52,191 nt of DNA from an uncultured Chryseobacterium sp. (lineage in GTDB: Bacteria > Bacteroidota > Bacteroidia > Flavobacteriales_F > PHOS-HE28). The position numbers were made by a program, and so were the translations under genes. Every line of letters begins with the position of its first letter. The stretch's first letter is position 1. A model generated the notes under the pieces. It was given only the letters and a program-made list of their open reading frames with translations. It searched no databases and was not told where the DNA came from. The stretch covers positions 1-52,191 of the forward strand of contig CAYQMC010000001.1 in assembly GCA_964418285.1 (NCBI GenBank), given 5' to 3'. Of the stretch, positions 4,928 to 40,677 are shown piece by piece.

Positions 4928-4958
4928 AGTACCTTTCGACATATACCGACCAAGACCC

Positions 4959-5780
4959 ATGCGCAACCCCTTCCTCATCCTGCTGGCTGCGACATTGCTG
5001 CTGCTTACATCCTGTGTGGCCAAGAAGAAATTCGTTGACGCCACCGACCATGTGCAACGCTTGAAGGCCGATAGTTTGGGCTTCGAGGAACAGGTGAAGG
5101 GCCTGATGAACGAACGGACCCAACTGCAGAACGCGCTGGCGGCCACCGAAGCGCGGCTTGCGAACAGCGAGGAGGAACGCGAAGCCGCACAAGCAAGCCT
5201 GCGCGATCGCGAAGCACTGCTTTCCCAAAAGGACGCCGAACTCCTGGACAAGGTGGAACGCATGGACGACCTGAACCGTCGTCTCGATGCCCAGACGGCT
5301 GCACTGAGCGGACTCCGCAAGCGGATCGCCGATGCCCTGGTGAATTTCAAGAGCGATGAACTTTCGGTTACCCAGAAGGACGGAAAGGTGTATGTATCGC
5401 TCAGCGAAAAACTCCTGTTCAAGAGTGGCAGTGCCGAGGTCGATCCCAAAGGCAAGGAGGCCATCGGCCAACTGGCCACGGTGCTCAAGGCCAACAGCGA
5501 TATCGGCGTGCTTGTCGAAGGTCACACAGATTCCATTCCCATCGCCAGTGGACGATTCAAGGACAACTGGGAACTGAGCACTGCCCGGGCTACGAGCATC
5601 GTGCGCCTGCTTACGGTCGACCATGACCTCCGACCCCAAAGTGTTACGGCTGCCGGCCGTAGCGAGTTCGTTCCGGTTGCCAGCAACACGGATGCCGATG
5701 GCCGGGCGCGCAACCGCCGCACGGAGATCATTCTCACGCCCGACCTGAAGGAACTCTTTGAATTGGTCGGGGAGCCTTGA
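4959..5780 (+). CDS. OmpA/MotB-family lipoprotein with N-terminal coiled coil
   Basis: Internal ATG at 4959 of ORF 4767..5780 gives MRNPFLILLAATLLLLTSC (lipobox LTSC). A coiled coil follows (QRLKADSLGFEEQVKGLMNERTQLQNALAATEARLANSEEEREAAQ...). The OmpA_C-like end reads VLVEGHTDSIPIASGRFKDNWELSTARATSIVRLL...NRRTEIIL. Confidence 0.85.
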   Translation: MRNPFLILLAATLLLLTSCVAKKKFVDATDHVQRLKADSLGFEEQVKGLMNERTQLQNALAATEARLANSEEEREAAQASLRDREALLSQKDAELLDKVERMDDLNRRLDAQTAALSGLRKRIADALVNFKSDELSVTQKDGKVYVSLSEKLLFKSGSAEVDPKGKEAIGQLATVLKANSDIGVLVEGHTDSIPIASGRFKDNWELSTARATSIVRLLTVDHDLRPQSVTAAGRSEFVPVASNTDADGRARNRRTEIILTPDLKELFELVGEP

Positions 5781-8652: not shown

Positions 8653-8914
8653 GGCAGTGTGCCCGGCCAATGCATGGATCGGCCGTGGACTCCCACTTCC
8701 TGATCCGCAAGAAGGATCACGGAATTCTCGGCGGTCCCACCCTCCGGGACCGATCACGTTCACCCCTTGCATAAAGGACACACGGCCCGGTGCATGGCAG
8801 TGCATGGCAACGCCGTGGAATAAATGGCTCGCCTGCGGAATTAGGGTTGAAGGCCCGACACTGGAGCACATCCAAGCCCATCGATCTGACGCCCGAGAGT
8901 CAAGAGAGGAATGT

Positions 8915-10131: not shown

Positions 10132-11442
10132 TCAGGCTTTCTGCACGTTCGGTTTCACCGTTGGCACGCGGATCAGGTCGTGCCCGATGTCGCTCCGCAT
10201 CGTTTTCCCTTCGTAGGCAATGAGCGCCGCACTGCGGTATGCCGATGCGATGGCATGCTCCAGATCCTTCCCGAAAGCGGTTACCACCAGCACACGTCCG
10301 CCGTTGGTCACCAACTGATCTCCCTTCATGGCGGTGCCCGCTTGGAACACATAGGCGTCCCGCACCAGCTCCAGTCCCGCGATCGGTCTGCCCTTCTCGA
10401 AATCGCCGGGGTAGCCTTCCGATGCCAGCACCACGGTAACGGCGGTGCGGTCGTCCACATCCACATGGCCTTCGCTCAGGGTTCCTGTGGCGATACCCTC
10501 GAACAGGTCGAGCAGGTCACTGCGCAGGCGGGGTAGCACCGCTTCGGTCTCCGGATCGCCCATGCGCACGTTGTACTCGATCACGTAGGGCTCGCCGCCC
10601 ACGTTCATAAGCCCGATGAAGAGGAAGCCCTTGTAGGGAATGCCGTCCTTGCGCAGGCCGCGGATGGTGGGTGCCGCGATGCGGTCGTGGACCTTCTGCA
10701 TGAAGTCCTTGTCGGCGAAAGGCACGGGAGAAACAGCACCCATGCCGCCGGTGTTGGGGCCGGTGTCGCCATTGCCGATGCGTTTGTAGTCCTTGGCGCT
10801 GGGCAGCATCTTGAAGGATTCGCCATCGGTTACCAGGAATGCGGAGAGCTCGATGCCCTTGAGGAATTGCTCGATCACCACACGCTCGCCGGCATTGCCG
10901 AAACGGCCGCCCTCCAGCATGTCCTTCAGGGTGGATGCCGCTTCCTTCTTGTCGCTGGTGATCACCACGCCCTTGCCGGCCGCGAGGCCATCGGCCTTGA
11001 TCACGTAAGGTGCCTGGGCACGTTCCAGGTGTTCGATGGCCTCCTTCAGCTGGCCCTTCACGAAGGTGCGGTGGGCTGCCGTGGGTATGCTGTGGCGGAA
11101 CATGAACTCCTTGGCGAAGTCCTTGCTTCCTTCGAGCTGCGCGGCCTGCTTGCGCGGGCCGATCACCGTAACACCCGCCAGCTTGGGGTCATCGGCAATG
11201 CGGTCGTGCAGGCCGTCCACCAAGGGCGCTTCAGGACCTACCACCACGATGCGGATGCGCTTCTCCAGCAGGAAGGCGCGCAGTTTGGCGTGGTCCTTCA
11301 GGTCCAGGTCCACATTGCGACCATGGCGCACCGTGCCGGGGTTGCCCGGTGCTATGTACAGTTCGTCCAACAGGGAGCTCTGGGCGATCTTCCAGGCCAT
11401 GGCGTGCTCCCTTCCACCCCCACCGATCAACAGGACATTCAT
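10132..11442 (-). CDS. purD: Phosphoribosylamine--glycine ligase (PurD)
   Basis: MNVLLIGGGGREHAMAWKIAQSS...YIAPGNPGT...ATP-grasp core...GGMGAVSP...IEYNVRMGDPE. Full-length PurD signature. Confidence 0.95.
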   Translation of the reverse strand: MNVLLIGGGGREHAMAWKIAQSSLLDELYIAPGNPGTVRHGRNVDLDLKDHAKLRAFLLEKRIRIVVVGPEAPLVDGLHDRIADDPKLAGVTVIGPRKQAAQLEGSKDFAKEFMFRHSIPTAAHRTFVKGQLKEAIEHLERAQAPYVIKADGLAAGKGVVITSDKKEAASTLKDMLEGGRFGNAGERVVIEQFLKGIELSAFLVTDGESFKMLPSAKDYKRIGNGDTGPNTGGMGAVSPVPFADKDFMQKVHDRIAAPTIRGLRKDGIPYKGFLFIGLMNVGGEPYVIEYNVRMGDPETEAVLPRLRSDLLDLFEGIATGTLSEGHVDVDDRTAVTVVLASEGYPGDFEKGRPIAGLELVRDAYVFQAGTAMKGDQLVTNGGRVLVVTAFGKDLEHAIASAYRSAALIAYEGKTMRSDIGHDLIRVPTVKPNVQKA

Positions 11443-19910: not shown

Positions 19911-19987
<77 letters not shown>

Positions 19988-19989
19988 GA

Positions 19990-20018
19990 AAGGCGGTTCG
20001 CATGGACCGCCTTTTTTC
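19990..20018 (+). terminator. Rho-independent terminator after tRNA-Ala
   Basis: AAGGCGGT-tcgcatgg-ACCGCCTT followed by TTTTT. Confidence 0.6.
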
Positions 20019-20052
20019 GTTCCGAGGTCAGGAGGTGGCGCACCTTTGCCAC

Positions 20053-20937
20053 ATGCCTCTGCCCGGATCCCTCATCGAACAGCTCGCCGAGCATCTTTCG
20101 GCCCATTCCGGGCAGCCGGTGGACATCGAGGAAGCCTTTCCCGTGGGTGGCGGCTCCATCAACGATGCGTGGCGCTTGGAGACCGATTCCGGGCGTTTCT
20201 TCCTGAAGACCAACAGCGCCGACCGCTTCCCCAGCATGTTCGAAGCCGAGGCCGATGGGCTGCAGCGCTTGCGTGAAGCCGGGCCATTGCATGTACCCGA
20301 GGTGATCGCCCACGGTGAGGACCACAGCGACGGCTTCCTCCTGCTCGAATGGGTCGAAGGTGGCATCAAGGGGCCGGGGTTCTGGGCCGAATTCGGGCGG
20401 GGACTCGCACAACTGCACCGGCATACGCAGGAGCATTTCGGGTTGGATCGTGACAACTACATCGGCAGCTTGGTGCAGCGGAACACACCGGAGCGCGACT
20501 GGCCCTCCTTCTTCATCCACCAGCGCTTGGAGCCGCAGCTCAAGATGGCTCGGGACCGCAAACGCGTTGATGCCGGCATGGCCTTTCGTTTCGAGCGGCT
20601 GTTCCACCAACTGGACAGGCTCTTCCCGGCCGAACCTCCCGCTCTGCTGCACGGTGACCTTTGGACCGGTAATTTCCTTTGCGATGACGCAGGCCGTCCG
20701 GTGCTCATCGATCCCGCCGTGTACTATGGACACCGGGAGATGGACCTGGCCATGACCAAGCTGTTCGGCGGATCCGATGATGCCCTGTACACCGCCTACC
20801 ACGCTGAGTGGTCGTTGGAGCAGGGCTGGAAAGAGCGCGTCGACCTGTGCAACCTGTATCCGCTGATGGTCCATGTGAACCTCTTCGGCGGGGGCTACAT
20901 GGCGCAGGTGGAGGGGGTGCTCAAGCGCTTCGCATAG
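20053..20937 (+). CDS. Fructosamine/ketosamine-3-kinase family protein
   Basis: Internal ATG at 20053; the track ORF start at 19945 lies inside the tRNA. Motifs are GGGSINDAWRLETDSGRFFLKTN, LLHGDLWTGNF and IDPAVYYGHREMDLAM. Confidence 0.9.
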   Translation: MPLPGSLIEQLAEHLSAHSGQPVDIEEAFPVGGGSINDAWRLETDSGRFFLKTNSADRFPSMFEAEADGLQRLREAGPLHVPEVIAHGEDHSDGFLLLEWVEGGIKGPGFWAEFGRGLAQLHRHTQEHFGLDRDNYIGSLVQRNTPERDWPSFFIHQRLEPQLKMARDRKRVDAGMAFRFERLFHQLDRLFPAEPPALLHGDLWTGNFLCDDAGRPVLIDPAVYYGHREMDLAMTKLFGGSDDALYTAYHAEWSLEQGWKERVDLCNLYPLMVHVNLFGGGYMAQVEGVLKRFA

Positions 20938-21058
20938 CAATGGTTCCCAAGCGAAAGTCTCGGAACACGTTGGGACGCATCCGAGGCTTTCGCCAAAGGC
21001 CGGGGCAACTGGTGAACAAACCCCTTTGCAGACCATTCCCCGGCCAGGGGGCTCCTGG

Positions 21059-24000
21059 TCACTCCACGATGAGCCGCTGCTGCTTCATGATACCGTTCGT
21101 GTACACCACCTGCACGATGTACACACCAGGGCTGATCCCGTCCAGTGCGTAGTGCTCATCCGGGAGCATTTCATGGACCTCTCGCCCGCTGGCATCCAAG
21201 AGCAGCACATGCCGCAAAGCATCCTTGCCCAGTATTCGGAACATTCCGCTTGCCGGGTTCGGGAAGATGGTAGGTCCGGTCATCCTATCCGTACCACGCA
21301 CGGCCATTGTGGGGCTCCAAGAAAACTCCCCGTTGTGGTCCACCTGTTTGATCCGGTAATAGGAAATGCGATCGCTCGGATTAGGGTCAAGGTGGGTGTA
21401 ATCCGATAGCTGTTGTGTGGTTCCCTGGCCATCCACCCAGGCGATCTGTCGGAGATCCACCTCGCCATCGATCATGCGCCATACCTCGAAACCGGCATTG
21501 TCGAGTTCGGTGGCGGTGGTCCACTGCATCAATACTTCGCCTTCGGTGATACGTTCAGCAGAGAAGGAAAGCAGCTCCACCGGCAGTGGTAGACCGAAGG
21601 TGGTGATGTACAGTTCACCGTCGTCATCCAATACAGCGGTATAACCGTGCGTTCCCCCGTTGCCTTGGATACGTGGCTCCAATGCCGGAGCTGCCGGGTA
21701 TAAAGGCGTCCATATGTTGCCCGGTGGGTTGTTCATCAAGGAGCAATCCTCCATCGGACCTGCATAATGGGCCACCCCGGCATCTGCAGGGACACCTACG
21801 GCGGGATCCGCCGTGGCATAAGTGCCGAATTCATCCCCGCTGTGGAAGAGCCGCACGATGGCACCGGTGGTGATGGGGAGCTGTGTGCTGAGCTGCCAGT
21901 TGCGATCCAGGTAGTGTTGGCCGATGAGGCTTTGACGCACCGGGCCGTTGTTCACGTATACGTTCATGTTAACAGTACCGAGCACCTGGCCATTGTCGTT
22001 GAAGCGCGCCACCACCTTGCGGTCTTTGTAGATCCATTGGTCCTGTCCGCCGCCTGTACTGGTGATGGGGTCGGCCGGACCACAGGTGTTGAAGGCTTCG
22101 TTCCAGAGCTCGGGCGTGAATTCGTAGGCACCCATGTCCGGCAGTGTGGGGTCGCGCGGCAGGCCATCCTTGTCCGTGGTCACACCGGGGAAGGGTTGTG
22201 CCGCATCGTTGATCTCCATGCCGTATGCATGCAGGTCGTTGTTCCCATCGTAATACTTGGGGTCCGCAATGATCGAGTTCGCATTCGTGCCGGTGGCCAG
22301 GCTGAGCGTGGCGATGTCGGTATGGGTCCCACCCCACAATATCGCCAGTGGAAAGAAGCCAGTGGTATGGAAGCAGTTGTGATCGCCTTGTACCCCCGTA
22401 TTGGTGACATACACAGGGTTGGTGCCGGTGCCGGAGAACACATTGTTCCTGACATTGACCTCGGTGCCAGTGCCGGATGCCGCGTACAAAGCGTACCCAT
22501 CGTAGCGCTGCATGTGGAAGCTGTTGTGGACGACATCGATGCGCTCCAGATCTCCACCGATGTTGATCCCCAAGCGGCCTCGATAGAGGAATTCGTTGTT
22601 CGCGATCAATGCTCTGGAAGGCGCCAACGGCGCCACGTTGTACAGTGTCAAGCCCGATGCTGTGGTTGACGCTATGCTGTGCACCTTGTTCTTCGTGAAG
22701 GTGAACGGCCCCGTACAGTTGGAGAGGGCGACCGCGAACTGGTCGCGGCCTTCGAGCTGGTTGCCGCTCATGGTCAAGGTTCCAGCGAAGTTCGCGAAGT
22801 AGAATCCCGCATTCGGAGTGGTGCGGATGCAATCCGTGATCGATATGTGTTCCATGGGTCCTCCGGTGGTCCACCACATAGCGGAATAGCCTCCGCTCAA
22901 ATGACATGCCTCCAATTCGAGCTGTGGTTCTCCCGGACCGTTCTCCCTTTCGATCAAATGGCCGTTATTGTTGGTCGCAAAGATGTACAGTACAGCGCAG
23001 TTCCGAAGCCTCAGGTATTGATCGCCGGTCGCATTCGGATCCACGTACACGACCCGCTTGTACTGTGACCCACCGGGCCTGTTGAAGGTGATGTGTTCCA
23101 TGCTGACCCACTCCATACCGCGCCAATGCATCAAGTGATTGTTCGCAGGAGTGAAACTCGCGGGCCACTCCACACGCACCAACGAGCTGTCCATGGACAT
23201 CCCCCTGAAGGTGATCGTGTTCACACTGCTGTTCCCTGACACCGGTGCAAGGTCCAACTGTTCGTTGTATGTGCCATCCTCCACTTCAAAGACCACCGGG
23301 CCGTTGATCCCGCAGTTCTGCATCTTGCGGATTGCCGAGGTGAACGACGGGAAATCAGCAACCACCGATGGGCCAATGGTGTAGGTGCCGTTCAGGGTGA
23401 AGCAGTACTCCGTGGTCTCATCCGCGCCGATATCGGGCATGGTGGCCACCGGCTGTGGTCGCGGCTCACCATCGGCATCCGCCGTAACGCTGGCAAGGGG
23501 GGTGCCGTTCCCGGCGCAGGGGGATCCGCTCTGGAGGTGCAGATCGCTTACGGCGTTCACGTACAACGGGTCCTGGTTCCTGGAATTCGCATCGAATCCC
23601 GTGGCCGCGTTCAGGTCGGCGATCGTGGAATGCGTTCCATTCCACGTTGCGAAGGAGCTGCCGCTGCCGAGGTAATAGCAGTTGTAGTCGGCTTCGGAAA
23701 CAGCGGTCAGGTCCTGCACTCGTATCGCTAGAAAGGTGGGCGAGAAGAAACTATTGTTGATCAGACGGACCTCCGCGCCTGGTCCACCCGTGATGTCGAC
23801 CCTGCCCGAGCAACTGTTGTGGAGCATGTCCACGTACTGAACGGTCTGGAGGACGCACGCCGCACCCGTGCCTCGCATGAAGTTGTTCACGAGCAGGCCC
23901 TTGTTCGTGGGTGTGCCTACGCAGTTGCTGATCAGGAGCGCCGTTGAAGCGTTGGAGTACATGCGATTGCCGCGGAATTCGAAGCCGCCATCGCAATCGC

Positions 24001-24760
24001 TGAGCACATTGTTCAGGAAGAGGGCGGAGACCACCGTGTTGCTCGTGAAGAGATTATCGATCAGATGGACGCCGCCATCCACCGCATTGAACAGGATGCC
24101 TGAGTTGTACAGGACATTGCCCTCCATCCGGATCTCATCCGCCAACGAAGAGCCCCTCCAGTACACGGAATAGCGTCCATTTTCAAAGCGGTTCTCCGTG
24201 AACCGGATACCGGTCTGCAGCACCGCATCATCCACGTGGACCAGGTTCTGGTTCGCCGGTGCCGGAGCTGGGTTCACCACCCCTTGGAAACGACAACGTC
24301 GGAAGGTGATGTCCGCTGCGGGACCCTGGATCGACACCACATGTGCGTAGGTGGCCGATCCGGCGCGTCGAAAGGAAAGGTGCTCGAAGGTGATGTGCTG
24401 CGCGCCATTGATCCGTACCGCATAGTTCGGGTTGAAGGTGGTGCTGGTGGACGTGGATACGATGACGTTGGCCAGGGTGCTGTCCAGGGCCTGCCCCCGA
24501 AAGGTGATGGTGTTGGTCGCGGATGCGCCGGCTATCGGGGAGACGACGACCCGTTGGAAATAGCTCCCATTCGCCACCTCCATCACCACGGGACCGTTCA
24601 CCCCGAGTGTATTCAGGTCGGCGATGGCGGCCGCGAAGGAAATGTAGTCACCACCACCTCCGGGATCGATCACATACGTGCCGCTCATTTGGGCATGCAC
24701 CGGGGTCATCGTGAACACGAACAAGAAGAGCGCTGCACTGTGCCGAAGTTGGGAGAACAT
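21059..24760 (-). CDS. Giant T9SS-secreted protein with two right-handed parallel beta-helix modules and a type-A CTD
   Basis: ATG 24760 gives MFSQLRHSAALFLFVFTMTPVHAQ (signal peptide); the track start at 24784 is a TTG. There are two homologous modules, starting GTYVIDPGGGGDYISFAAAIADLNTLGVNGPVVMEV...NTITFRG and GTYTIGPSVVADFPSFTSAIRKMQNCGINGPVVFEV...NTITFRG. Each is followed by N-rich beta-helix repeats and a D.DG.PR...DIGA.E end. An Ig-like domain and the CTD (IFPNPASGMFRILGKDA...GVYIVQVVYTNGIMKQQRLIVE) follow. Confidence 0.85.
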   Translation of the reverse strand: MFSQLRHSAALFLFVFTMTPVHAQMSGTYVIDPGGGGDYISFAAAIADLNTLGVNGPVVMEVANGSYFQRVVVSPIAGASATNTITFRGQALDSTLANVIVSTSTSTTFNPNYAVRINGAQHITFEHLSFRRAGSATYAHVVSIQGPAADITFRRCRFQGVVNPAPAPANQNLVHVDDAVLQTGIRFTENRFENGRYSVYWRGSSLADEIRMEGNVLYNSGILFNAVDGGVHLIDNLFTSNTVVSALFLNNVLSDCDGGFEFRGNRMYSNASTALLISNCVGTPTNKGLLVNNFMRGTGAACVLQTVQYVDMLHNSCSGRVDITGGPGAEVRLINNSFFSPTFLAIRVQDLTAVSEADYNCYYLGSGSSFATWNGTHSTIADLNAATGFDANSRNQDPLYVNAVSDLHLQSGSPCAGNGTPLASVTADADGEPRPQPVATMPDIGADETTEYCFTLNGTYTIGPSVVADFPSFTSAIRKMQNCGINGPVVFEVEDGTYNEQLDLAPVSGNSSVNTITFRGMSMDSSLVRVEWPASFTPANNHLMHWRGMEWVSMEHITFNRPGGSQYKRVVYVDPNATGDQYLRLRNCAVLYIFATNNNGHLIERENGPGEPQLELEACHLSGGYSAMWWTTGGPMEHISITDCIRTTPNAGFYFANFAGTLTMSGNQLEGRDQFAVALSNCTGPFTFTKNKVHSIASTTASGLTLYNVAPLAPSRALIANNEFLYRGRLGINIGGDLERIDVVHNSFHMQRYDGYALYAASGTGTEVNVRNNVFSGTGTNPVYVTNTGVQGDHNCFHTTGFFPLAILWGGTHTDIATLSLATGTNANSIIADPKYYDGNNDLHAYGMEINDAAQPFPGVTTDKDGLPRDPTLPDMGAYEFTPELWNEAFNTCGPADPITSTGGGQDQWIYKDRKVVARFNDNGQVLGTVNMNVYVNNGPVRQSLIGQHYLDRNWQLSTQLPITTGAIVRLFHSGDEFGTYATADPAVGVPADAGVAHYAGPMEDCSLMNNPPGNIWTPLYPAAPALEPRIQGNGGTHGYTAVLDDDGELYITTFGLPLPVELLSFSAERITEGEVLMQWTTATELDNAGFEVWRMIDGEVDLRQIAWVDGQGTTQQLSDYTHLDPNPSDRISYYRIKQVDHNGEFSWSPTMAVRGTDRMTGPTIFPNPASGMFRILGKDALRHVLLLDASGREVHEMLPDEHYALDGISPGVYIVQVVYTNGIMKQQRLIVE

Positions 24761-24819
24761 GGCCGAAATCGCTTTGGTGTGCAAATTCCCACATCACCAT
24801 CGCGCAGTTCAAGTCGCAA

Positions 24820-24852
24820 TGGGTGAACGACCGATCCTGTTGGGTGAACGAC
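24820..24852 (-). promoter_or_regulatory. Candidate LytTR-regulator operator: exact 12-bp direct repeat TGGGTGAACGAC x2, 21-bp period
   Basis: Copies lie at 24820..24831 and 24841..24852 (plus strand). On the gene-sense strand this reads GTCGTTCACCCA-N9-GTCGTTCACCCA, immediately upstream of a TTG(-33-like)...TTTG promoter-like stretch. The proximal copy ends 59 nt before ATG 24760. The same core with the same period occurs at 26557..26589. Confidence 0.55.
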
Positions 24853-25167
24853 ACAGGGTAAGTCCAAAGGGAAGGAACAGGACTTGGTGGAGCATTGGTC
24901 CCCCGAGGACCTTCGCCGGTCAGCAGCAATGATCCCATTGCCCCGCACTTGGCCAGCTCTGCAAAGCAACGCGGGGCACAGGCCTCCATTCCCGGTATCG
25001 GCTGTTCGAAGAAGTCCGGGGTGCCCGTAGCCTCCCTTCGCTCCTCAACTCATCCACCGGTGGTGCAAGCAGCCCATGGTCCGGGGCTACCATCACGGAC
25101 GGTGCAAGGTCCGTTCAGTTCAGCCCTGAAATGGAAGAAGAAGTTCCGTTGGGGAGCAGTAGCGCCT

Positions 25168-26508
25168 TCACGGCGCAGTGAACTTGTTCAGCAGGCCCTT
25201 GCCCTTCTTGAGGATGTCGTTGGGGCCGTTGGAGGTGGAGTTCGTGGTGGACGATCCGCTCGTGGTGTTGGGCGCTGTGGCTTGTTGCACCGCTTTCTGT
25301 GCCCCGGATGTCGGCTTGCAGAGCATGCCCGGCTCGTAGCTGTTGATGCGCGCGATATCATCCGGACTGGTCAGCATCCACACTTCCAGCGCGCTGATCT
25401 TGTAGGTCTCGCCGGTCTTCTGGCCGTTCTTCCAAGTGCCGCCACCTTTGGTGAGGGCCATGCGCGTGTGGGCGTCCTGCGTGGCGTTCCACCATTCCAT
25501 CATATCGGCTTGCTGATGCTTCACGCCGGGATCCGCGCAGTACTGTTGTGCATAGGTGCTTTTTCCTTTGAAAGCGTTGTTCACGGCCTTGTTCACCAGG
25601 TCCGCACCGCGCTCTGTCAAGCGGATCGTGCTTCCCTCCACGAAGTGGTGCGGCGCAAGCATGCGCATCAGGTAGGCCTCGAACTGTTCTGCCGTGCTTT
25701 CTCGAAGCAGCTTGTGTGTGTACATGAACACGTCCACGTCACGCGCGAACTCCGGGATGGTCACCTCGCCCAAGGCTGCCAAGGCTGCGGCAGCCTGCTC
25801 TTCTTCCACACGACTGCCGATGGTGGGCATGGCGCGGATCTCCTCCGAAGTGAAGGTGCGTTTGTTCTCCTCCTTCGTTTCCTTTTGCGTGGTGATGAGG
25901 TTGGGTTTCCATGGACCGCTTACTTCATCGCGGTAGAAGCGTGTTTCCTGGATCACGGTCTCGGTGGCCACCTCGGTGTTGCTCACGATCCGATCCCCGA
26001 CCACTTCGAACTGCATGCTGAAAGACAATGGTGAGTGCCACTCGGTCTTCGGTTCGTCGGCCACGCGGATGCTCTTCAGGTCCACCATGCTATTGTACCG
26101 GTACGAGCTGAGGAAGGCTTTGAGGTTCGCTTTCGCATGGGCCAGGATGTCCGCCTCCGAAGGTGTGGGGATGCCTTCGTAGGTGTTGTTGGTGGTCTTC
26201 CATTCCCGGTAGCTCGGCGGGTTGCCTGTGTGGTAGCGGGCGAACCCGGATACCACCACCTGCGCGTTGGGGTATTCCGCGATCCCGGCAGGTAACCAGA
26301 TGGTGGCACCTCGCTCCCAGAACCACTGCGTGTGCGCATCGCTCCATGACTTCTTGGTGGTTCCCTTGGAGAGTTCCACCTTGAGTTGCTTGGGACTGGC
26401 GATGTCCTTCAGTATCTGGGCATCACTGGGTTGTGCGAACGCAGCGATCGCCGTAAGGCTGATGGCCGCAACAAGGAGGGCAAGCCGGATACGCATCTTC
26501 GTGGACAT
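25168..26508 (-). CDS. Secreted protein of unknown function (446 aa)
   Basis: Signal peptide MSTKMRIRLALLVAAISLTAIAAFAQ, balanced K/E/N/T composition unlike the R/G/H-rich antisense ORF 24895..26034, and a Ser/Thr/Asn-rich C-terminal tail. No domain recognised. Confidence 0.75.
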   Translation of the reverse strand: MSTKMRIRLALLVAAISLTAIAAFAQPSDAQILKDIASPKQLKVELSKGTTKKSWSDAHTQWFWERGATIWLPAGIAEYPNAQVVVSGFARYHTGNPPSYREWKTTNNTYEGIPTPSEADILAHAKANLKAFLSSYRYNSMVDLKSIRVADEPKTEWHSPLSFSMQFEVVGDRIVSNTEVATETVIQETRFYRDEVSGPWKPNLITTQKETKEENKRTFTSEEIRAMPTIGSRVEEEQAAAALAALGEVTIPEFARDVDVFMYTHKLLRESTAEQFEAYLMRMLAPHHFVEGSTIRLTERGADLVNKAVNNAFKGKSTYAQQYCADPGVKHQQADMMEWWNATQDAHTRMALTKGGGTWKNGQKTGETYKISALEVWMLTSPDDIARINSYEPGMLCKPTSGAQKAVQQATAPNTTSGSSTTNSTSNGPNDILKKGKGLLNKFTAP

Positions 26509-26556
26509 TTGGGTTCACGAACTTGCGACGGATCCATGGTATAGTGCCGTCCCGAT

Positions 26557-26589
26557 CGGGTGAACGTCGGAATGGGTTGGGTGAACGGA
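26557..26589 (-). promoter_or_regulatory. Candidate LytTR-regulator operator: direct repeat with GGGTGAACG core x2, 21-bp period
   Basis: CGGGTGAACGTC lies at 26557..26568 and TGGGTGAACGGA at 26578..26589 (plus strand). The site abuts the stop codon of the LytTR regulator gene (26590) and ends 48 nt upstream of ATG 26508 of the secreted-protein gene. Confidence 0.55.
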
Positions 26590-27330
26590 TCAGAGCGTAC
26601 GGATCCGCGCCATCAGCGCCTCCTTGTACGTCTTCCCCACGGGGATCACCTGCGTGCCCATGCGCACACAGCCGTCCTCCACAGCGGTCACCTTGCGGAG
26701 GTCCACCACGTAGCTGCGGTGTATCCGCACGTGGTGCGGACTGTTCAACTTCTCTTCCACGGCTGCGAGGGTGCTGGTGATCACGTACTTCTTCGTCGGT
26801 GTGTGCAAGGTCACATAGTTGTCGTCCGCTTCCGCCAACCGGATCTCGGCCAGGGGCACTTTCACCAAGCGGCCTTTGTCGCGTACGAAGATGCTGTCGT
26901 CGATCACGAAATCGCTCCGTTGGGCGGTTTCGGGCTGGGTGCTCACGTCCAGCTTTCCGGCGGTGCGTGCAAGGGCCACTTCGATCTGTGTGTGCAGGTC
27001 GTTCTCATCGAAGGGTTTGATGATGAACCCGGCTGGCCGCACTTCCTTGACACGATCCAGGGTCGCCTTGTCCGCGTGGCTGGTCACGAAGATGAAGGGC
27101 GTGGGATGCTTCGCGTTGATGGTGGACGCCAGTTGGACGCCGTCGGCACCATCGCCCAGGTTGATGTCCAGGAGCAAGAGGTCCGGCTTATGCGTGATCA
27201 GTTCGGACATCGCATCCAAGGCGTTGTCGCATACGGCGCACACGGCGTAGCCGAGCTCGTCCAGATGGGCGCGCAGGTCCTCCGCGATAAGCGGTTCGTC
27301 CTCCACCACGATGATGCGTACCGCGTTCAT
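26590..27330 (-). CDS. LytR/AlgR-family response regulator (REC + LytTR DNA-binding domain)
   Basis: REC domain: IIVVEDEPLIAEDL...PDLLLLDINLGDG...FVTSH...GFIIKPF. LytTR domain: IFVRDKGRLVKVPLAEIRLAEADDNYVTLHT...FVRIHRSYVVDL. The start overlaps the kinase stop (ATGA). Confidence 0.9.
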   Translation of the reverse strand: MNAVRIIVVEDEPLIAEDLRAHLDELGYAVCAVCDNALDAMSELITHKPDLLLLDINLGDGADGVQLASTINAKHPTPFIFVTSHADKATLDRVKEVRPAGFIIKPFDENDLHTQIEVALARTAGKLDVSTQPETAQRSDFVIDDSIFVRDKGRLVKVPLAEIRLAEADDNYVTLHTPTKKYVITSTLAAVEEKLNSPHHVRIHRSYVVDLRKVTAVEDGCVRMGTQVIPVGKTYKEALMARIRTL

Positions 27331-29159
27331 TGGACCTTCTTGTACTTGCGGATGATGAGCCGGGCCAAGGTACCACCGTCCCGGATCACGCTGTGCTCGG
27401 CGCCCAACTTCGAGGAGAACGACCTGATCATGTTCAGCCCGAATCCGGTGCCCTCGGCATTGCGGGGTGCAGCCGGATCATAGCCGATGCCATCGTCGTG
27501 CACATCGAGTATCAGCACATCGGCGGGTCGCCCCTGCGGGTCAACGCCACTGTTGCCTTCCCCAGCGGTCTCGTACATGGCTATCGATAGCACTCCCTTC
27601 CTTCCGTCGGGCCACGCGTATTTCAGCGCGTTGGTGATCAGCTCGTTCAGGATCAAGCCCAGTGGGATCGCGGTGTCCACATCCAAGGTCATGGGTTGCA
27701 CCTCCATGTTCAGCGCAACGCGATCGGCCTGCACCTGGTGGCTGCTCATGAGGCTGCGCGCAAGCTTCTCCACATAACCTGGCATGCTGATCCCGGTGAG
27801 GTCATCCTCCTTGTACAGGTCCTGGTGGATCAGTGCCATGCTCTTCACACGGTCGCGTCCATCGCGCACGGCACCGCGCGCCTTCTCATCGGTGATACCA
27901 CGGCCTTGTATGCTCAACAAGCTGCTCACCACTTGCAGGTTGTTCTTCACGCGGTGGTGGATCTCGCGCAACAGCAGTTCCTTCTCCTTCAGTTGCTCCT
28001 CGATGATCGCGTTCTTCTTGGCCAGTTCTCCTTCGGCTTTGCGCTTCACACGGTACGCGCGGTAGGCGAACACAGCCGCCAAGAGCAGCAGGACCGCACC
28101 CACCACCACGGCCCGTATCGTGATCGCGCGTTGCTCCAGGGCGGCGGCGCGCTCGGCCAATAGCGCATCCTTCTTCCCGCTTTCGTATTTCTCGCGCACC
28201 TCGGCGATCTGTGCACTGCGTTCGGCATTGAGCAACGTGTCGTTCAAGGCCGTCATCTCCTTGTAGTGGATCAAGGCGGAATCCATGCGGCCGATCGCTT
28301 CGAAGTGCTCGCTCAAATGTCCTTCACCATCGGCCGCCACTTTCGACCCGCCGTTGGCGCGTGCGATGCGCACCCCTTCACGCAGGTGGATCAACGCACT
28401 GTCGCGAATGCCGTTCGCATCCATCATTCGGCCCAAGTTGATCAGCAGGCTTGCGCGGTTCAGCTCATCTTCGCCCACGGGATGCACCGCCAGTGCAGAG
28501 CGAATGGTGGCCAGGGCCAGCTCGGGGTCGCCTCGGTCCAAGTAGCACACGGCCAGGTTCATGCGCACCTGGGCGATGGATGACCGCTCACCGAGTTCGG
28601 TAAGCATGCGATCCGCCAATTCATAGTAGACCACTGCACTGTCCTTTTCACCCTCATAGAAGTGGATGTTGCCCAGGTTGTTGCCCACGTTGGCGATCCA
28701 TGCGGTATCCCCCAGCGCTTCGAATCCGTCCAGCGCAGTGCGGTATTCACGTGTGGCCTCCGCGAAACGGGAATCGTGCTCCAGTACGCTGCCCACGTTG
28801 TTGTGCGCCATGGCCGTGTACCAAGGGTCATCGCCCTGCTCGAAATGCGATAGGGCAGCTACGTAGTGTCGCAAGGCACCATCCTGTTCCCCCTTGGCGG
28901 AATAGCACATGCCGGTGTAATTGTGGCCTTTGCCGATCTCCAAGGCCACCCCGCTGGCCTCCGCTAGTTCCACATATTGCCTTGCGAAGAACAAACCGCT
29001 ATCCGGATCGCTGAATACCGTGGCACGCAACAGTGCAGTGAGCACCGGTAGTCGCGCGGTGTCGTTGGGCAAGCTGTTCAGCACGCGGAGCAGGCTGTCC
29101 AATTGGGCTTCACTGGACAGCGAAGCCGAGCAGGCAAGAACGATCAGGAGCCAACGCAT
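27327..29159 (-). CDS. Sensor histidine kinase: signal peptide, extracytoplasmic TPR repeats, one TM, HisKA_2 + HATPase_c
   Basis: MRWLLIVLACSASLSSEAQ, multiple TPR-like repeats, TM segment AVVVGAVLLLLAAVFAYRAY, H-box EIHHRVKNNLQVVSSLLSIQ, N-box LNELITNALKYAW and G-box DDGIGY...GFGL. Confidence 0.9.
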   Translation of the reverse strand: MRWLLIVLACSASLSSEAQLDSLLRVLNSLPNDTARLPVLTALLRATVFSDPDSGLFFARQYVELAEASGVALEIGKGHNYTGMCYSAKGEQDGALRHYVAALSHFEQGDDPWYTAMAHNNVGSVLEHDSRFAEATREYRTALDGFEALGDTAWIANVGNNLGNIHFYEGEKDSAVVYYELADRMLTELGERSSIAQVRMNLAVCYLDRGDPELALATIRSALAVHPVGEDELNRASLLINLGRMMDANGIRDSALIHLREGVRIARANGGSKVAADGEGHLSEHFEAIGRMDSALIHYKEMTALNDTLLNAERSAQIAEVREKYESGKKDALLAERAAALEQRAITIRAVVVGAVLLLLAAVFAYRAYRVKRKAEGELAKKNAIIEEQLKEKELLLREIHHRVKNNLQVVSSLLSIQGRGITDEKARGAVRDGRDRVKSMALIHQDLYKEDDLTGISMPGYVEKLARSLMSSHQVQADRVALNMEVQPMTLDVDTAIPLGLILNELITNALKYAWPDGRKGVLSIAMYETAGEGNSGVDPQGRPADVLILDVHDDGIGYDPAAPRNAEGTGFGLNMIRSFSSKLGAEHSVIRDGGTLARLIIRKYKKVQ

Positions 29160-29181
29160 GCCGCAAGGTGCGGAAGTTCGA

Positions 29182-30168
29182 TCAGAACTGCGGTCTTTCC
29201 GGCTCGTTGTCCAGCACCTTGGCGATGCGCGCCAGCACTTCAGGGGTGAGCAGGTCCTGCGCCTCGCTCGCCTTGAGGTTCTCCTTGAGCTGCGCCTCCT
29301 TGCTGGCGCCCAGGATCACGGTGCTCACATTGGGGTTCTTCAGGCACCAGGCAAGGGCCATCACCGGCAGCGAGAGCCCAAGACCATCAGCGATCTTGTT
29401 CAGCTTCTCCACGGTCTTCAAGCGGGCGGGTGTGAGCTCGCGTTCGCGCAACCAGTCGAGTCCTGCCATGGTAAGGCGCGTGCCTTTCGCGGCCTTGATG
29501 TCGCGGTGCTTGCCGGTGAGAATGCCACTGGCCAGAGGGCTCCAGATCGTGGTGCCCAGGCCTACGGTCTTGTACACCTGGTCGAACTCCACCTCCACCT
29601 TGTCGCGGTGGAACATGTTGTATTGCGGCTGTTCCATGACGGGGGCGATCAGGTGGTGTTGATTCGCCACCATATGTGCTTCCATGATCTCCTGCGCGCT
29701 CCATTCACTGGTGCCCCAGTAGAGGATCTTGCCGCTCATGATCAGCTGGTGCATCGTCCACACGGTTTCGGCAATGGGCGTATTCTTGTCCGGGCGGTGG
29801 CAGAAGTAGAGGTCGAGATAGTCCACTTGCAGCCGCTGCAGCGCGGCGTTGCACGCCTCCACCAAGTGCTTGCGGTGCAGACCCACCTGGGTCGGCAATT
29901 TGCCGCCGGTGCCGAAGAAGGCCTTGCTGCTCACGATCCAGGTGTCGCGCGACCACTTGGTCTTCTTCAGGATCTTCCCCATCACCTTCTCGCTCTCGCC
30001 ACGAGCGTATATCTCGGCGTTGTCGAAGAAGTTGACCCCGTTGTCATAGGCGGTCTTCATCAGCTTCTCAGCAGTAGCATCGCTGATCTGTTTGCCGAAG
30101 GTGAGCCAGCTGCCCAGGGAGAGTTCTGAGACTTGAAGACCGGAGGTGCCGAGGCGACGGTAGCGCAT
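29182..30168 (-). CDS. Aldo/keto reductase, Kv-channel beta-subunit-like (AKR6-like)
   Basis: Internal ATG at 30168 gives MRYRRLGTSGLQVSELSLGSWLTFGKQISDATAEKLMKTAYDNGVNFFDNAEIYARGESEKVMGKILKK, which closely parallels Kv-beta/AKR N-termini. Confidence 0.9.
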   Translation of the reverse strand: MRYRRLGTSGLQVSELSLGSWLTFGKQISDATAEKLMKTAYDNGVNFFDNAEIYARGESEKVMGKILKKTKWSRDTWIVSSKAFFGTGGKLPTQVGLHRKHLVEACNAALQRLQVDYLDLYFCHRPDKNTPIAETVWTMHQLIMSGKILYWGTSEWSAQEIMEAHMVANQHHLIAPVMEQPQYNMFHRDKVEVEFDQVYKTVGLGTTIWSPLASGILTGKHRDIKAAKGTRLTMAGLDWLRERELTPARLKTVEKLNKIADGLGLSLPVMALAWCLKNPNVSTVILGASKEAQLKENLKASEAQDLLTPEVLARIAKVLDNEPERPQF

Positions 30169-30314
30169 GGTGGTGGAGTTGAAGGGTATGGTTTGCCGAT
30201 GCGGACGTTGATGGAACAAAGGTCGGGGCTTAAGGTGGGCCGTTGGCAATTGAAGGAGGGGTCCTTGCGCATATGTGCTTTCCGGATATCTTTCACCACC
30301 ACGATACACCTCCC

Positions 30315-32090
30315 ATGACCCCATCCTTACCCGCGCGATACCTCGTTATCGCTTTGTTGTGCGTCAGTGTGCGTTCCCTCGCCCAGTGCCCCAATTGTGT
30401 GGCCGAGGTCACCTGTACGGCTTCTCCGGCGTACCCCACGTTATGTCCCGCCCAGCCACCTGATGCCACTGCCGGCGAGTTCTACGAGTCGGACATCACG
30501 TTCTGGTTGCCCACCCAGTTCACCGATCCGGGCACCGGCTTCGATGTCACCTTCCAGCAGATGACCATCACCAGCGTTACAGGGCTGCCCTTCGGACTCA
30601 CCTTGGAAACGAGTTCGCCGGATGGCATCTATTTCCCACAGCAAAGCCAGTATGGCTGCGGCCGCATCTGCGGCACGCCCGTTGGCCCTGGCACGTTCGA
30701 TATCACCATCAGTATCATCGCTGGTGTCACCTTTTCGGGCATCGATATCGATGCGCCTGAGCAGTTCACCATACCGCTGGTCGTGCTACCGGGCAGCGGT
30801 GGCAACAGCAGTTTCACCTTTGGTCCCACCTCCGGCTGCGGCAGCGTGGAGGTCGCTTTCGAGGCACTTATCGATGCCACCCCTTCGCCCATGAGCTACG
30901 ACTGGGACTTCGGCAACGGTGTTTCAAGCACGGAGCAGGACCCTATTGTCACCTTCGATGAGCCCGGATCCTACACGGTCGAACTGGAGACCACGATACT
31001 GGGTTATGTGCTCGATGCGGTCAACGTGAACGGGTTGAACGGAAACTGGTGTGGCGATGTGGAAGAGGCCTTCTGCAACTGCGGAACCCCGATCATCGGC
31101 ACCTGTCCGGATCTCTACTTTGTGCTAAGCAATGCCAATGGCCCCGTGTACACCAGTCCTACGAACGGCGGGGGCACCAGTACGTCATGGTCGGGCCTGG
31201 GGATCGCGTTGCAGGATCCTCCTTATGCGATAACCGTGTGGGACGAGGATCCTGTGAGCCAGGACGACAACCTCGGCACCTACGCTATCGTTCTTGATCC
31301 AGGTGCCACGTATGGGTTCAATGTGGCCGGTGGAACCAACGGTGTGCTGACCATCGACCTGGTAGCCCTGCAGACGTTCAACGACACCGATGTGGTCGAG
31401 GTGTTCGACCTGCCGGAGGTTGTCGTGGAAGCGCAGCCCAATGGCCAACTCTGCGTGGCCGATACTGCCCTGGTGGCCTACACCTGGTTCCTCGATGGCG
31501 ATACCGTGCCGGATGCTTTCGGACCTTGTGTCGTCCCCACAGGCCCCGGCTTGTGGTGGGTGGTGGCCACCAACGGGTTCGGTTGCACGACCCAGAGCGA
31601 TACGCTCGTTGTTTGCCCTCAGGTGGCAGTGGTCCAGACCGGGGCGGTCCTCTCGGTTCCTGCAGGATTCAACAACTATGTGTGGAGCTATGGCGGTATT
31701 GCACTGCCCAATGGCAATGGACCGGCCATAACCGCTGGTGCCGATGGCCTCTACACCGTAGTGGTGCAAGCCGAGAACGACTGTGAGATCACGGCAACCT
31801 ACATGTACAGCACGGTCGGTATCGCCGAGCTGGAAGCTGCAGGAGGTGGGATCCTGGTCTACCCCGTTCCCAACGATGGTGTGTTCACCGTGGAGGCCGC
31901 CGGGCTTACCGGCGCCAGCGCAGGCCTGCGCATTTCCGATATGAGCGGGCGTATCGTGTACGAGTCCCGGGAACGGATCGCCTTGGGCCGCTTGCGTGCA
32001 GCGCTGATGCTCGATACGGCCCCAGGACCGTATGTGGTCCAGGTATGGGACGAAACACGGAGCTTCACCCAGCGGATCATGGTGCGGTAG
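30315..32090 (+). CDS. T9SS-secreted protein with PKD domain and type-A CTD
   Basis: Internal ATG at 30315 gives MTPSLPARYLVIALLCVSVRSLAQ. The PKD-like segment is YDWDFGNGVSSTEQDPIVTFDEPGSYTVELETT. The CTD is VYPVPNDGVFTVEAAGL...LRISDMSGRIVYES...GPYVVQVWDETRSFTQRIMVR. Confidence 0.8.
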   Translation: MTPSLPARYLVIALLCVSVRSLAQCPNCVAEVTCTASPAYPTLCPAQPPDATAGEFYESDITFWLPTQFTDPGTGFDVTFQQMTITSVTGLPFGLTLETSSPDGIYFPQQSQYGCGRICGTPVGPGTFDITISIIAGVTFSGIDIDAPEQFTIPLVVLPGSGGNSSFTFGPTSGCGSVEVAFEALIDATPSPMSYDWDFGNGVSSTEQDPIVTFDEPGSYTVELETTILGYVLDAVNVNGLNGNWCGDVEEAFCNCGTPIIGTCPDLYFVLSNANGPVYTSPTNGGGTSTSWSGLGIALQDPPYAITVWDEDPVSQDDNLGTYAIVLDPGATYGFNVAGGTNGVLTIDLVALQTFNDTDVVEVFDLPEVVVEAQPNGQLCVADTALVAYTWFLDGDTVPDAFGPCVVPTGPGLWWVVATNGFGCTTQSDTLVVCPQVAVVQTGAVLSVPAGFNNYVWSYGGIALPNGNGPAITAGADGLYTVVVQAENDCEITATYMYSTVGIAELEAAGGGILVYPVPNDGVFTVEAAGLTGASAGLRISDMSGRIVYESRERIALGRLRAALMLDTAPGPYVVQVWDETRSFTQRIMVR

Positions 32091-38673: not shown

Positions 38674-40677
38674 TTATTCCTTGGTGAATTTGCGGGATAC
38701 CACTTTGCCTTTTCCGATCAGTTGCAGCGTATAGTTGCCAGGAACCAGGCGGGATACATCCAGCGACCCGTTCTGCAGGTTGCTTTCCAACACCAGGCGG
38801 CCTGTGGCGTCCAAGATCAGCACGGTACGTTGCGTGGTCACCGAGTTGCCTTCAACCCGGAGGGTCCCGGTCGTGGGGTTCGGGAATATCCGTAGTTCAT
38901 CGGCTTGTGCCTCTTCCACGATATCCGTGGTGATCGTGTTCTCCGTGATGTTCAGTGTGGTGTTGATGTCGGGGTTGCTCACCACGCTCACCAAACCTGA
39001 AGGCCAGTACACCACGACCTCTTCGATCTCGGTATCCTCCCCGATACCGAAGTGTGCCGTAAGGCTGCTCATGTGACGGAAGCCATCACCGCTTTTCACA
39101 TCGCGCATCTGGTTGCCCATGGCGCTGGTGATCGCTACTCGTGCACCGATGCCGTGTTTGTTGCTCTGGACACCGATCGTATTGATCTTGATCCAGTTGT
39201 TGCCGTTCGGCACGTTCATGCGGATGGTGCCACCGTTCACCACGTCCAGGAAACCATCGTTATTGAGGTCGCCCACCCCGCCAGCGCTTACACCCGTGTT
39301 CACCGGCGTGAAGGTCCAGTCGCCGTTGTTCAGCATGACCACACCTCCACCACCAAGCACGTCGATGTAGCCGTTGTTATCGAAGTCGTGGGCCACATGT
39401 TCGATGCTGGTGCTGAAGAAATCCTCCCAACCGGTGCCTGCGGTCACGTCATCGAATGTGCTGCCGTTGTTGCGCATCACCTTGTGGCCTCCGGCTGCGA
39501 ACGAGCTTGCGCCCACGATCACATCCTTGTTACCATCGTTGTCGAAGTCGCCCCAGGCTGCTGACCAGGTCTGGACATCATCGGCGAGACCCAGTTGCTC
39601 TCCGACCTCGGTGAAGGTGCCATCGCCGTTGTTGCGGTGCATTTGGTTGGTGCTCGCCACGGAGTTGCCACCGCGGCACTTGGCGATGAAAAGGTCGACA
39701 TCTCCATCACTGTCATAATCGATCCAAATGGATCCGTAGTTGCCTCCGTTCGGGGTGTCGCCAAGGCCACCTTGGTAGAAGGTGAGGTTGCCTTCTCCAT
39801 CGTTCAGGTAGTACACATTGGGTTGCACATCGTGGCAAACGAAGGCATCCAGGTGACCATCGTTGTTGATGTCCACGAAGTTCGAACGCTGCGAGAACAC
39901 GTATTCCGGACCAGCCACTTGGGTATAACCGGTTCCATCGGCATTGGCCATCATGAAGGAAACGCCGTTTCCGCCACCATACAACAGGTCCATATGTCCG
40001 TTCGCATCGATATCGCCAACGGCCATGCTCCAAGAAGGGGAGTTCACCGCTTGGGGTGTCGGCGTGTCCACCACATCGAATACGCCGTTGGCCTGTTGCT
40101 GGGCCACTCGTACGTTGGTGCCGGTCACGCTGACCACATCATCCAGGTAGTCACCGTTCATGTCCACCACGGCCAAACTGCTGCCACTGGTGCTCACCGG
40201 AACATTCATGAAGGTCAAAGCCCCGGTCGGTATGGGTCCTTCGTTCAGGAGGAAGTCGAAGCCGTTGGATGTCCAGCGGTTGTCGAACGCTATACGGTAG
40301 TTCGTACCCGCCTCGGCGAACCAGGTCACCAAGGAGGTGTAGTCCACACCACCGTCGTCATCGCCGGCTACACATACCAAGGCATCGCAAGGGCCGGCGT
40401 AGATGTGCACACGTGTATCCGTGTTCCCATTCTGCGGCAGGCTGGTGGAGATCGTCACCGAGATACTGACACTGGGGGTGTAGCTGTACCACATGCCAGC
40501 GGAGGTTTCGCCGGCCCCGTTCTGGGCGCAGATCGGGTCGGGTATTTCCAAGCCGTTCACTTGGGCCACGGTATAAGTGCCGGCAGTGATCGTGATCGGG
40601 GTCGCACAAGTGCTTTGAGCGTGAGCGTGAACACCCAGGCCAAGTGCGAGCAGAAGAGTAAGGCTTTGTTTCATCAT
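38674..40677 (-). CDS. T9SS-secreted FG-GAP/VCBS-repeat protein with ASPIC/UnbV-like domain (CRTAC1-like) and type-A CTD
   Basis: Signal MMKQSLTLLLALGLGVHAHAQ. There are repeated Ca-binding FG-GAP loops (DMNGDYLDDV, DIDANGHMDL, DINNDGHLDA, DYDSDGDVDL, DFDNDGNKDV, DFDNNGYIDV, DLNNDGFLDV). UnbV-like segment NWIKINTIGVQSNKHGIGARV...DGFRHMSS. CTD RIFPNPTTGTLRVEG...GNYTLQLIGKGKVVSRKFTKE. Confidence 0.85.
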   Translation of the reverse strand: MMKQSLTLLLALGLGVHAHAQSTCATPITITAGTYTVAQVNGLEIPDPICAQNGAGETSAGMWYSYTPSVSISVTISTSLPQNGNTDTRVHIYAGPCDALVCVAGDDDGGVDYTSLVTWFAEAGTNYRIAFDNRWTSNGFDFLLNEGPIPTGALTFMNVPVSTSGSSLAVVDMNGDYLDDVVSVTGTNVRVAQQQANGVFDVVDTPTPQAVNSPSWSMAVGDIDANGHMDLLYGGGNGVSFMMANADGTGYTQVAGPEYVFSQRSNFVDINNDGHLDAFVCHDVQPNVYYLNDGEGNLTFYQGGLGDTPNGGNYGSIWIDYDSDGDVDLFIAKCRGGNSVASTNQMHRNNGDGTFTEVGEQLGLADDVQTWSAAWGDFDNDGNKDVIVGASSFAAGGHKVMRNNGSTFDDVTAGTGWEDFFSTSIEHVAHDFDNNGYIDVLGGGGVVMLNNGDWTFTPVNTGVSAGGVGDLNNDGFLDVVNGGTIRMNVPNGNNWIKINTIGVQSNKHGIGARVAITSAMGNQMRDVKSGDGFRHMSSLTAHFGIGEDTEIEEVVVYWPSGLVSVVSNPDINTTLNITENTITTDIVEEAQADELRIFPNPTTGTLRVEGNSVTTQRTVLILDATGRLVLESNLQNGSLDVSRLVPGNYTLQLIGKGKVVSRKFTKE

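Follow-up and report, generated by a model that had tools for sequence, protein, structure and literature searches.

The analysed stretch of DNA (hereafter the window, 52,191 nucleotides) carries two pairs of exact direct repeats that are probably the operators of an adjacent LytTR regulator (26590-27330), through which two transcription units would be activated. The initial annotation had already read the repeats as the binding site of this neighbouring regulator, and every computational test, based on protein domains, layout, conservation and density, agrees with that reading. The identity of the bound protein, the transcription starts and the activating effect we infer from the sequence.

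Repeat pairs and neighbouring genes

On the plus strand, the 12-mer TGGGTGAACGAC is present at 24820-24831 and 24841-24852, and the 9-mer GGGTGAACG at 26558-26566 and 26579-26587. The copies of each pair start 21 bp apart, and both the coordinates and the spacing are as the initial annotation had given them. Read on the minus strand, which is the sense strand of the genes, both pairs take the form CGTTCACCC-N12-CGTTCACCC with a 21-bp period, found twice in the 52-kb window and each time with a spacer of exactly 12. The putative operator of the beta-helix gene consists of a distal half-site CGTTCACCC at 24842-24850 and a proximal one at 24821-24829 (minus strand), and the exact repeat extends here to 12 bp (24841-24852 and 24820-24831, respectively). 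In the second putative operator, belonging to the gene of a 442-aa protein, the distal half-site (26579-26587, minus strand) is again CGTTCACCC and begins 3 nt past the TGA stop of the regulator gene (26592-26590), while the proximal half-site (26558-26566, minus strand) is followed by a conserved GATC at 26557-26554. Repeated bases account for 12 of the 21 positions of each unit in the pair 24820-24852 and for 9-10 of 21 in the pair 26558-26587.

Counting both strands, the window contains six copies of the 9-mer GGGTGAACG, compared with 0.73 +/- 0.86 expected from dinucleotide-preserving shuffles, and a count of six was reached in 0 of 100 such shuffles. The earlier estimate of about 0.6 chance copies was thus sound, and all six copies that had been counted by eye, four paired and two isolated in reverse orientation (8757-8765 and 24595-24603), were recovered. 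The 9-N12-9 pattern has two exact matches in the window against 0.03 expected even at three mismatches. A PWM trained on 35 unique sites, all from other genomes, gave 42.5 bits for 26554-26590 and 40.9 bits for 24817-24853; the third-best position in the 52 kb (both strands) reached 5.7 bits, and the maximum over 20 shuffled windows was 10.3. No other site was found in the window by this density check.

Several further candidates were rejected. A third pair at 39213-39242, with three mismatches, scored 1.1 bits with the PWM and was attributed to chance, and the isolated inverted half-sites at 8757-8765 and 24595-24603, being two singles within chance expectation, were not accepted as functional. 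The copy at 24595-24603 falls within the beta-helix gene, where it codes for the GVNG in LNTLGVNGPV, a conserved N-terminal motif. This explains why four orthologues show a similar match at an identical offset, and the copy is a coding coincidence and not a third site. The Rfam scan of the window detected tRNA only and no known RNA element at the repeats.

All relevant genes lie on the minus strand, and their order in the direction of transcription is reductase, kinase, regulator, operator, 442-aa gene, operator and 1233-aa gene. The first is an aldo/keto reductase gene (29182-30324, minus strand). It is followed by the gene of a sensor histidine kinase with TPR repeats, HisKA_2 and HATPase_c domains (27327-29159, minus strand; Pfam HisKA_2 1.7e-26, TPR_12 2.4e-19 and HATPase_c 7.5e-07), which overlaps the regulator gene by 4 nt. 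The kinase is presumed to be the cognate partner of the regulator, and the pair of genes is conserved in orthologous loci. The regulator (26590-27330, minus strand) combines a receiver domain (Pfam Response_reg 5.2e-23, 81.8 bits), in which the motifs LLLLD and IIKP are present, with a LytTR domain (4.6e-18, 65.7 bits against a cut-off of 22.6), which bears out the initial assignment of the gene next to the second pair. It is the sole LytTR-domain gene detectable in the window. A PDB sequence search with the whole regulator returned matches to the receiver domain only and nothing useful on the LytTR domain.

Both presumed target genes encode secreted or surface proteins. The 1233-aa protein (21059-24760, minus strand) has a signal peptide, a right-handed beta-helix (Pfam Beta_helix 4.8e-12), a choice-of-anchor Q domain and a C-terminal sorting domain of type A of the type IX secretion system (T9SS; NCBIfam TIGR04183 Por_Secre_tail, 24.4 bits against a cut-off of 23); NCBIfam NF041518 was matched too. 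The second target gene (25168-26496, minus strand) encodes the 442-aa protein, which has a signal peptide and belongs to no known family: it had no Pfam or NCBIfam match, its 80 homologues, almost all from Flavobacteriales MAGs, are all annotated as hypothetical, and its AlphaFold model, a confident one (pLDDT 87), resembled no PDB fold significantly (best E 0.02, TM about 0.1). The listed reading frame of this gene starts at 26508 (446 aa). The tblastn alignments of the 442-446-aa protein mostly begin at residue 3-5, and a start at 26496 agrees with the ATG spacing at related sites and would give predicted leaders of equal length (17 nt) in front of both target genes; ATG 26496 (Met5) is therefore favoured and is most likely the start, rather than 26508.

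Beyond the 1233-aa gene, a tRNA-Ala (GGC) gene at 19913-19987 (plus strand) overlaps the initial codons of the minus-strand reading frame listed at 19960-21036, and the real start of that frame must therefore lie further downstream. Homologues of its 358-aa product come after the giant beta-helix gene in several relatives.

Conservation in related genomes and the probable binding protein

A scan with the regulator protein against one genome per species returned 45 loci, of which about 25 are orthologous. These belong to uncultured Flavobacteriales MAGs, several of them bearing wastewater-plant isolate names, with regulators 61-92% identical at the amino acid level. The related DNA examined amounts to 786 kb, about 20 kb per related genome. 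In almost all orthologous loci the exact pair is present right after the regulator stop and again 2-6 kb downstream, always on the strand of the regulator.

The initial annotation had proposed looking for the repeat in orthologous intergenic regions. In an analysis made without motif selection, i.e., of the 75 nt past the last codon of every distinct full-length regulator orthologue (n = 20), a pair with at most two mismatches started 3-12 nt past the last codon in 17 of the 20, often as TGA|CGTTCACCC, and the three exceptions had an insertion or a degenerate copy. In a de novo count of 9-mers in the upstream regions of target-gene homologues, CGTTCACCC ranked first, with 33 of 46 unique regions containing it. 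All 52 pairs found in the 786 kb at up to two mismatches lie on the gene-sense strand. Nearly all of these 52 related sites have a spacer of length 12 whose sequence is variable, and in an alignment anchored on the sites the columns of the half-sites hardly vary and those of the spacer carry 0.05-0.8 bits. For downstream genes identified as homologues of either target gene, the distance from the proximal half-site to the ATG is usually 55-62 nt. At the divergence of the orthologues, the surrounding intergenic DNA can otherwise no longer be aligned. We regard this as strong evidence that two half-sites at a fixed helical phase are under purifying selection.

The genes behind the pair in relatives encode homologues of the 442-aa protein and beta-helix proteins that are 450-1700 aa long and carry T9SS sorting domains, and further SBBP beta-propeller proteins, some with T9SS sorting, and one small LytTR protein. 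The regulon thus seems to be made up of proteins that are secreted or located at the surface.

In most relatives, the 442-aa gene and the giant gene are separated by two extra genes. One encodes a beta-helix T9SS protein of 460-614 aa and the other a small stand-alone LytTR protein (about 100 aa) whose identity to the LytTR domain of the regulator is 30-39%. The stand-alone LytTR gene lies, among others, at 14026-14340 in L001, 14007-14309 in L014, 8865-9182 in L167 and 8454-8783 in L023. Its TGA abuts the beta-helix operator, mirroring the junction between the regulator stop and its operator, which suggests that a cassette made of a LytTR 3' end plus operator was duplicated in the relatives and that a two-step cascade may operate there.

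In the window, neither the small LytTR gene nor remnants of it were found, and the 442-aa and 1233-aa genes are only 315 bp apart, compared with the two extra genes in most relatives. Homology to the close relative L166 extends about 35 nt past the stop of the 442-aa gene, into the start of the gene for a 614-aa beta-helix/T9SS protein, and breaks at 25135, where a 19-codon remnant, VKALLLPNGTSSSISGLN*, is left at 25171-25115 (minus strand). The approximately 280 bp after the break (24853-25135) had no match in L001 or L166. The lineage of the window has evidently lost both extra genes by deletion and kept a perfect operator before the giant gene.

The arrangement in the relatives also bears on the identity of the bound protein. 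The operators might be real and yet be bound by another protein, i.e., a stand-alone LytTR protein or an unlinked regulator encoded outside the window, which is probably a complete MAG contig. As the TGA of the LytTR-only gene directly abuts the beta-helix operator in most orthologous loci, the operators there could be bound by the regulator, by the small protein or by both of them, and because both operators share their core the sequence cannot tell the regulator and the small LytTR protein apart. The window, however, retains both operators perfectly with no second LytTR gene, and the operator adjoining the regulator co-occurs with it in 17 of the 20 orthologous loci, so that we consider binding by a different protein unlikely. 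Since the operator has stayed perfect despite the loss of the small LytTR gene, the adjacent regulator can presumably act on the giant-gene operator directly.

One relative, L167, differs in the arrangement of its locus. A Fic-domain gene (4442-5500) is inserted there between the regulator and the 442-aa gene, and CGTTCACCC and GTTTCACCC lie upstream of the latter (5550-5620), 33 nt apart instead of 12. The resulting period of 42 bp corresponds to four helical turns, and the helical phase is kept.

Predicted promoters and proposed mode of action

Promoters of Bacteroidota have a -33 element TTTG, a -7 element TANNTTTG and a G at -5 (PMC6847099). In the promoter of the beta-helix gene, a putative -33-like CTTG (24810-24813, minus strand) lies 7 bp downstream of the proximal half-site and a putative -7-like GGAATTTG is found at 24782-24789 (minus strand), with TTTG kept and TA missing. 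The start predicted from this -7 element lies at about 24777 and would give a 17-nt leader to ATG 24760. As the initial annotation had stated, the proximal copy ends 59 nt before this ATG, and the promoter-like stretch that it had placed in between is present as CTTG (24813-24810) and TTTG (24785-24782).

For the 442-aa gene, a putative -7-like CAAGTTCG (26518-26525, minus strand) corresponds to AAGTTCG, which stands at a fixed distance in 21 promoters, and the start is predicted at about 26513, again with a 17-nt leader (to ATG 26496); the -33-like element is a poor match. The -33/-7 matches are generally weak, especially in the promoter next to the pair 26558-26587. The missing TA of the -7-like elements fits what is expected of activator-dependent promoters. 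By the predicted start, the half-sites are centred near -69 and -48, with the proximal one at 24821-24829 covering about -52 to -44.

Promoter alignments anchored on the sites (17 of the beta-helix type and 21 of the 442-aa class) revealed further conserved positions. About 80% of sites have GATC directly past the proximal half-site, (G)CTGG(AC) occupies the position 7 bp downstream of it in orthologues, and 31-40 bp downstream there is either AAGTTCG (442-aa class) or GGnAnnTTGC (beta-helix class). Counted from the distal half-site, the columns +61 to +69 are conserved, with a T at +66 in 97% of sites. A sigma-70 promoter and terminator scan of 24500-27000 yielded no promoter and one plus-strand terminator-like site inside a gene; it is uninformative because Bacteroidota use -33/-7 promoters.

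The half-site starts are 21 bp, i.e., two helical turns, apart, which places both half-sites on one face of the helix. In the proposed mechanism, the TPR/HisKA_2 kinase (27327-29159) would phosphorylate the regulator (26590-27330), of which two molecules would then sit on the two half-sites near -69 and -48 and help RNA polymerase to use the weak Bacteroidota-type promoter immediately downstream. This would switch on two transcription units, one for the secreted 442-aa protein (25168-26496) and one for the beta-helix protein of 1233 aa (21059-24760), which would be exported by the type IX secretion system. The PWM scan of the window found no operator before the kinase-regulator operon, including the region upstream of the reductase, kinase and regulator genes (26590-30324).

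The position of the pair next to the regulator gene would also suit a different effect of the same protein, in which the adjacent regulator binds and represses or acts as a roadblock, e.g., by stopping read-through from the kinase-regulator operon. Read-through is plausible, as the pair 26558-26587 follows the regulator stop after 3 nt with no terminator-like site between them on that strand; a bound dimer could block it, and the -33/-7 assignments are predictions. The half-sites, however, lie upstream of the promoter-like elements and do not overlap them, which is the position of activators in characterised LytTR systems, an identical geometry is seen at the beta-helix operator (24821-24850), which has no regulator gene upstream, and the -7-like elements lack the consensus TA as activator-dependent promoters would. 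Repression or a roadblock therefore appears quite improbable next to activation by the adjacent regulator.

That the repeats are not regulatory at all, but were left behind by a local duplication or a mobile element, form a short tandem repeat of 21 bp or represent a promoter of the ECF-sigma type on the opposite strand, is very improbable: CGTTCACCC does occur at a 21-bp period in many unrelated 21-bp tandem arrays among the listed metagenome matches, but only cores of 9-12 bp are repeated here and the spacers differ within and between genomes, unlike in a tandem repeat or minisatellite, the cores are invariant across regulators only 61-76% identical, and the orientation and the distance to the downstream ATG are fixed. 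The plus-strand TGAAC...CGAC, which loosely resembles ECF -35/-10 boxes, was rejected as such a promoter. GAAC and CGAC are 20 nt apart, and the promoter would point away from any gene; ECF promoters typically have a shorter distance of 16-17 nt between their boxes.

Comparison with characterised LytTR systems

The sites bound by LytTR regulators are paired direct repeats, each of about 9 bp and about 12 bp apart, a rule which the initial annotation had named and which is documented (PMC6193735, PMC5600425). For AgrA, the consensus is [TA][AC][CA]GTTN[AG][TG] and the repeats lie 12-13 bp apart upstream of the -35 element (PMC5600425). The operators of the stand-alone LytTR regulators (LRS) of Streptococcus mutans and their homologues have 9-bp repeats 12 bp apart (rarely 11 or 13), positioned 4-11 bp upstream of -35; the length, spacing and position of these repeats are conserved, their sequence is poorly conserved, and they are reported to diverge from the AgrA consensus (PMC6193735).

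Both pairs of the window have this architecture, i.e., 9-bp direct repeats, a spacer of 12 and a LytTR gene in the locus. In the beta-helix promoter, 7 bp separate the pair from the putative -33-like element, compared with the documented 4-11 bp. In the register GACGTTCAC, about six of the eight specified positions match the consensus; this partial fit keeps the central CGTT-A and has mismatches at the first and last positions.

The likeness to the AgrA, ComE and PlnC systems of Firmicutes comprises the two 9-bp direct repeats with a 12-bp gap in sense orientation just upstream of the promoter (PMC5600425), which in the window is a predicted one, a REC-LytTR regulator with a kinase encoded alongside, and a core (C)GTTnA that fits the family consensus in part. 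The host of the window, in contrast, belongs to Bacteroidota, and its predicted promoters are of the -33/-7 rather than the -35/-10 type. The half-sites of AgrA, ComE and PlnC are imperfect and A+T-rich, whereas those of the window, CGTTCACCC, are perfect and G+C-rich. AgrC and ComD are membrane peptide receptors, whereas the kinase of the window is of a soluble-looking TPR/HisKA_2 type; no peptide pheromone gene is evident in the window, and the presumed targets are T9SS cargo proteins. Moreover, agr, com and LRS have an operator before their own operon, providing positive feedback, whereas both operators of the window lie downstream of the regulator gene.

The HdrRM and BrsRM systems of S. 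mutans, which are of the LRS type, share the 9-bp repeats, the 12-bp gap and, by the predicted promoters, the upstream position (PMC6193735), and stand-alone LytTR proteins like theirs are also encoded in relatives of the window locus. In LRS, a membrane inhibitor protein holds the regulator, which has no receiver domain and activates its own operon; in the window, the regulator possesses a receiver domain and a partner kinase, and no inhibitor gene was seen.

The initial annotation had also likened the core to the 9-mer of AlgR, a LytTR-domain response regulator of Pseudomonas aeruginosa. The 9-mer had been given correctly as CCGTTCGTC and shares the core CGTTC with (A)CGTTCACC (PMC4787818). 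The resemblance is limited, as six of nine positions are common to CCGTTCGTC and ACGTTCACC and the two are not identical; they differ at the last four positions (GTC versus ACCC), and the regulators share domains only, with no orthology beyond these. AlgR sites are usually described as single 9-11-mers at variable distance and orientation, not obligate pairs with a 21-bp period.

LytTR regulators are common in Bacteroidota. In open-access full text, no paper was found that describes the operator or regulon of a Bacteroidota LytTR regulator, and searches of the same literature for LytTR with Bacteroidetes or T9SS returned genome-description papers only and no operator study. The canonical operator architecture is known from other LytTR systems, and the half-site sequence, the Bacteroidota host and the wiring to T9SS cargo appear to be new. 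No new mechanism is revealed, and the regulator class is poorly studied. The 9-N12-9 rule established in Firmicutes appears to hold together with the unusual -33/-7 promoters of Bacteroidota, and the locus yields a precise, testable prediction of half-site, spacing, promoter geometry and target genes for a lineage represented solely by MAGs of wastewater and environmental origin. The motif could serve for regulon prediction in these genomes and for inducible expression tools.

A further-reaching and rather speculative interpretation, which we put forward tentatively, is that the element represents the first readable code of a Bacteroidota-wide kinase/REC-LytTR/T9SS module and that a cascade present in the relatives has been short-circuited here by the deletion. 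If so, TPR/HisKA_2 kinases and REC-LytTR regulators would drive T9SS cargo genes via (T)TCACC(C) repeats with a 21-bp period that sit directly past the stop codon of a LytTR gene, and the cascade of the relatives would run from the regulator through the small LytTR protein to the giant adhesin-like protein.

Variant pairs were found at loci whose regulators are paralogous or distant, with 33-52% identity to that of the window (L022, L029, L020 and L030). The low-G+C locus L030 (regulator 33% identical) has the same plan, with a TPR/HisKA_2 kinase and a REC-LytTR regulator: the pair TTTCACCT-N12-GATTCACCC is located 18 nt past the regulator stop (10705-10734) and is followed by TTTG-N19-TAATCTTG and then by a gene whose 705-aa product carries a T9SS sorting domain. 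In L022, a paralogous regulator (46% identical) is followed by CGGTCACCC-N12-CATCCACCC at about 6970-7010. Pairs with a 21-bp period also follow REC-LytTR regulators in L029 (TGTTCACCC/CGTTCGCCC, 6696-6725) and L020 (CGTTCACAC/CGTTCGCCC, 4547-4576). These variants hint that regulator and half-site co-vary.

A scan of metagenome contigs for the exact pair gave at least 120 loci. Nearly all of the listed matches were coincidences in G+C-rich DNA or 21-bp tandem arrays with no relation to the locus, and five were true orthologues (L057, L058, L082, L094 and L156). Unrelated contigs (L049, L052/L101, L053/L114 and L056/L073) carry (A)CCGTTCACCC pairs with non-repeated spacers in seemingly intergenic A+T-rich stretches, which could be LytTR-type operators in other organisms.
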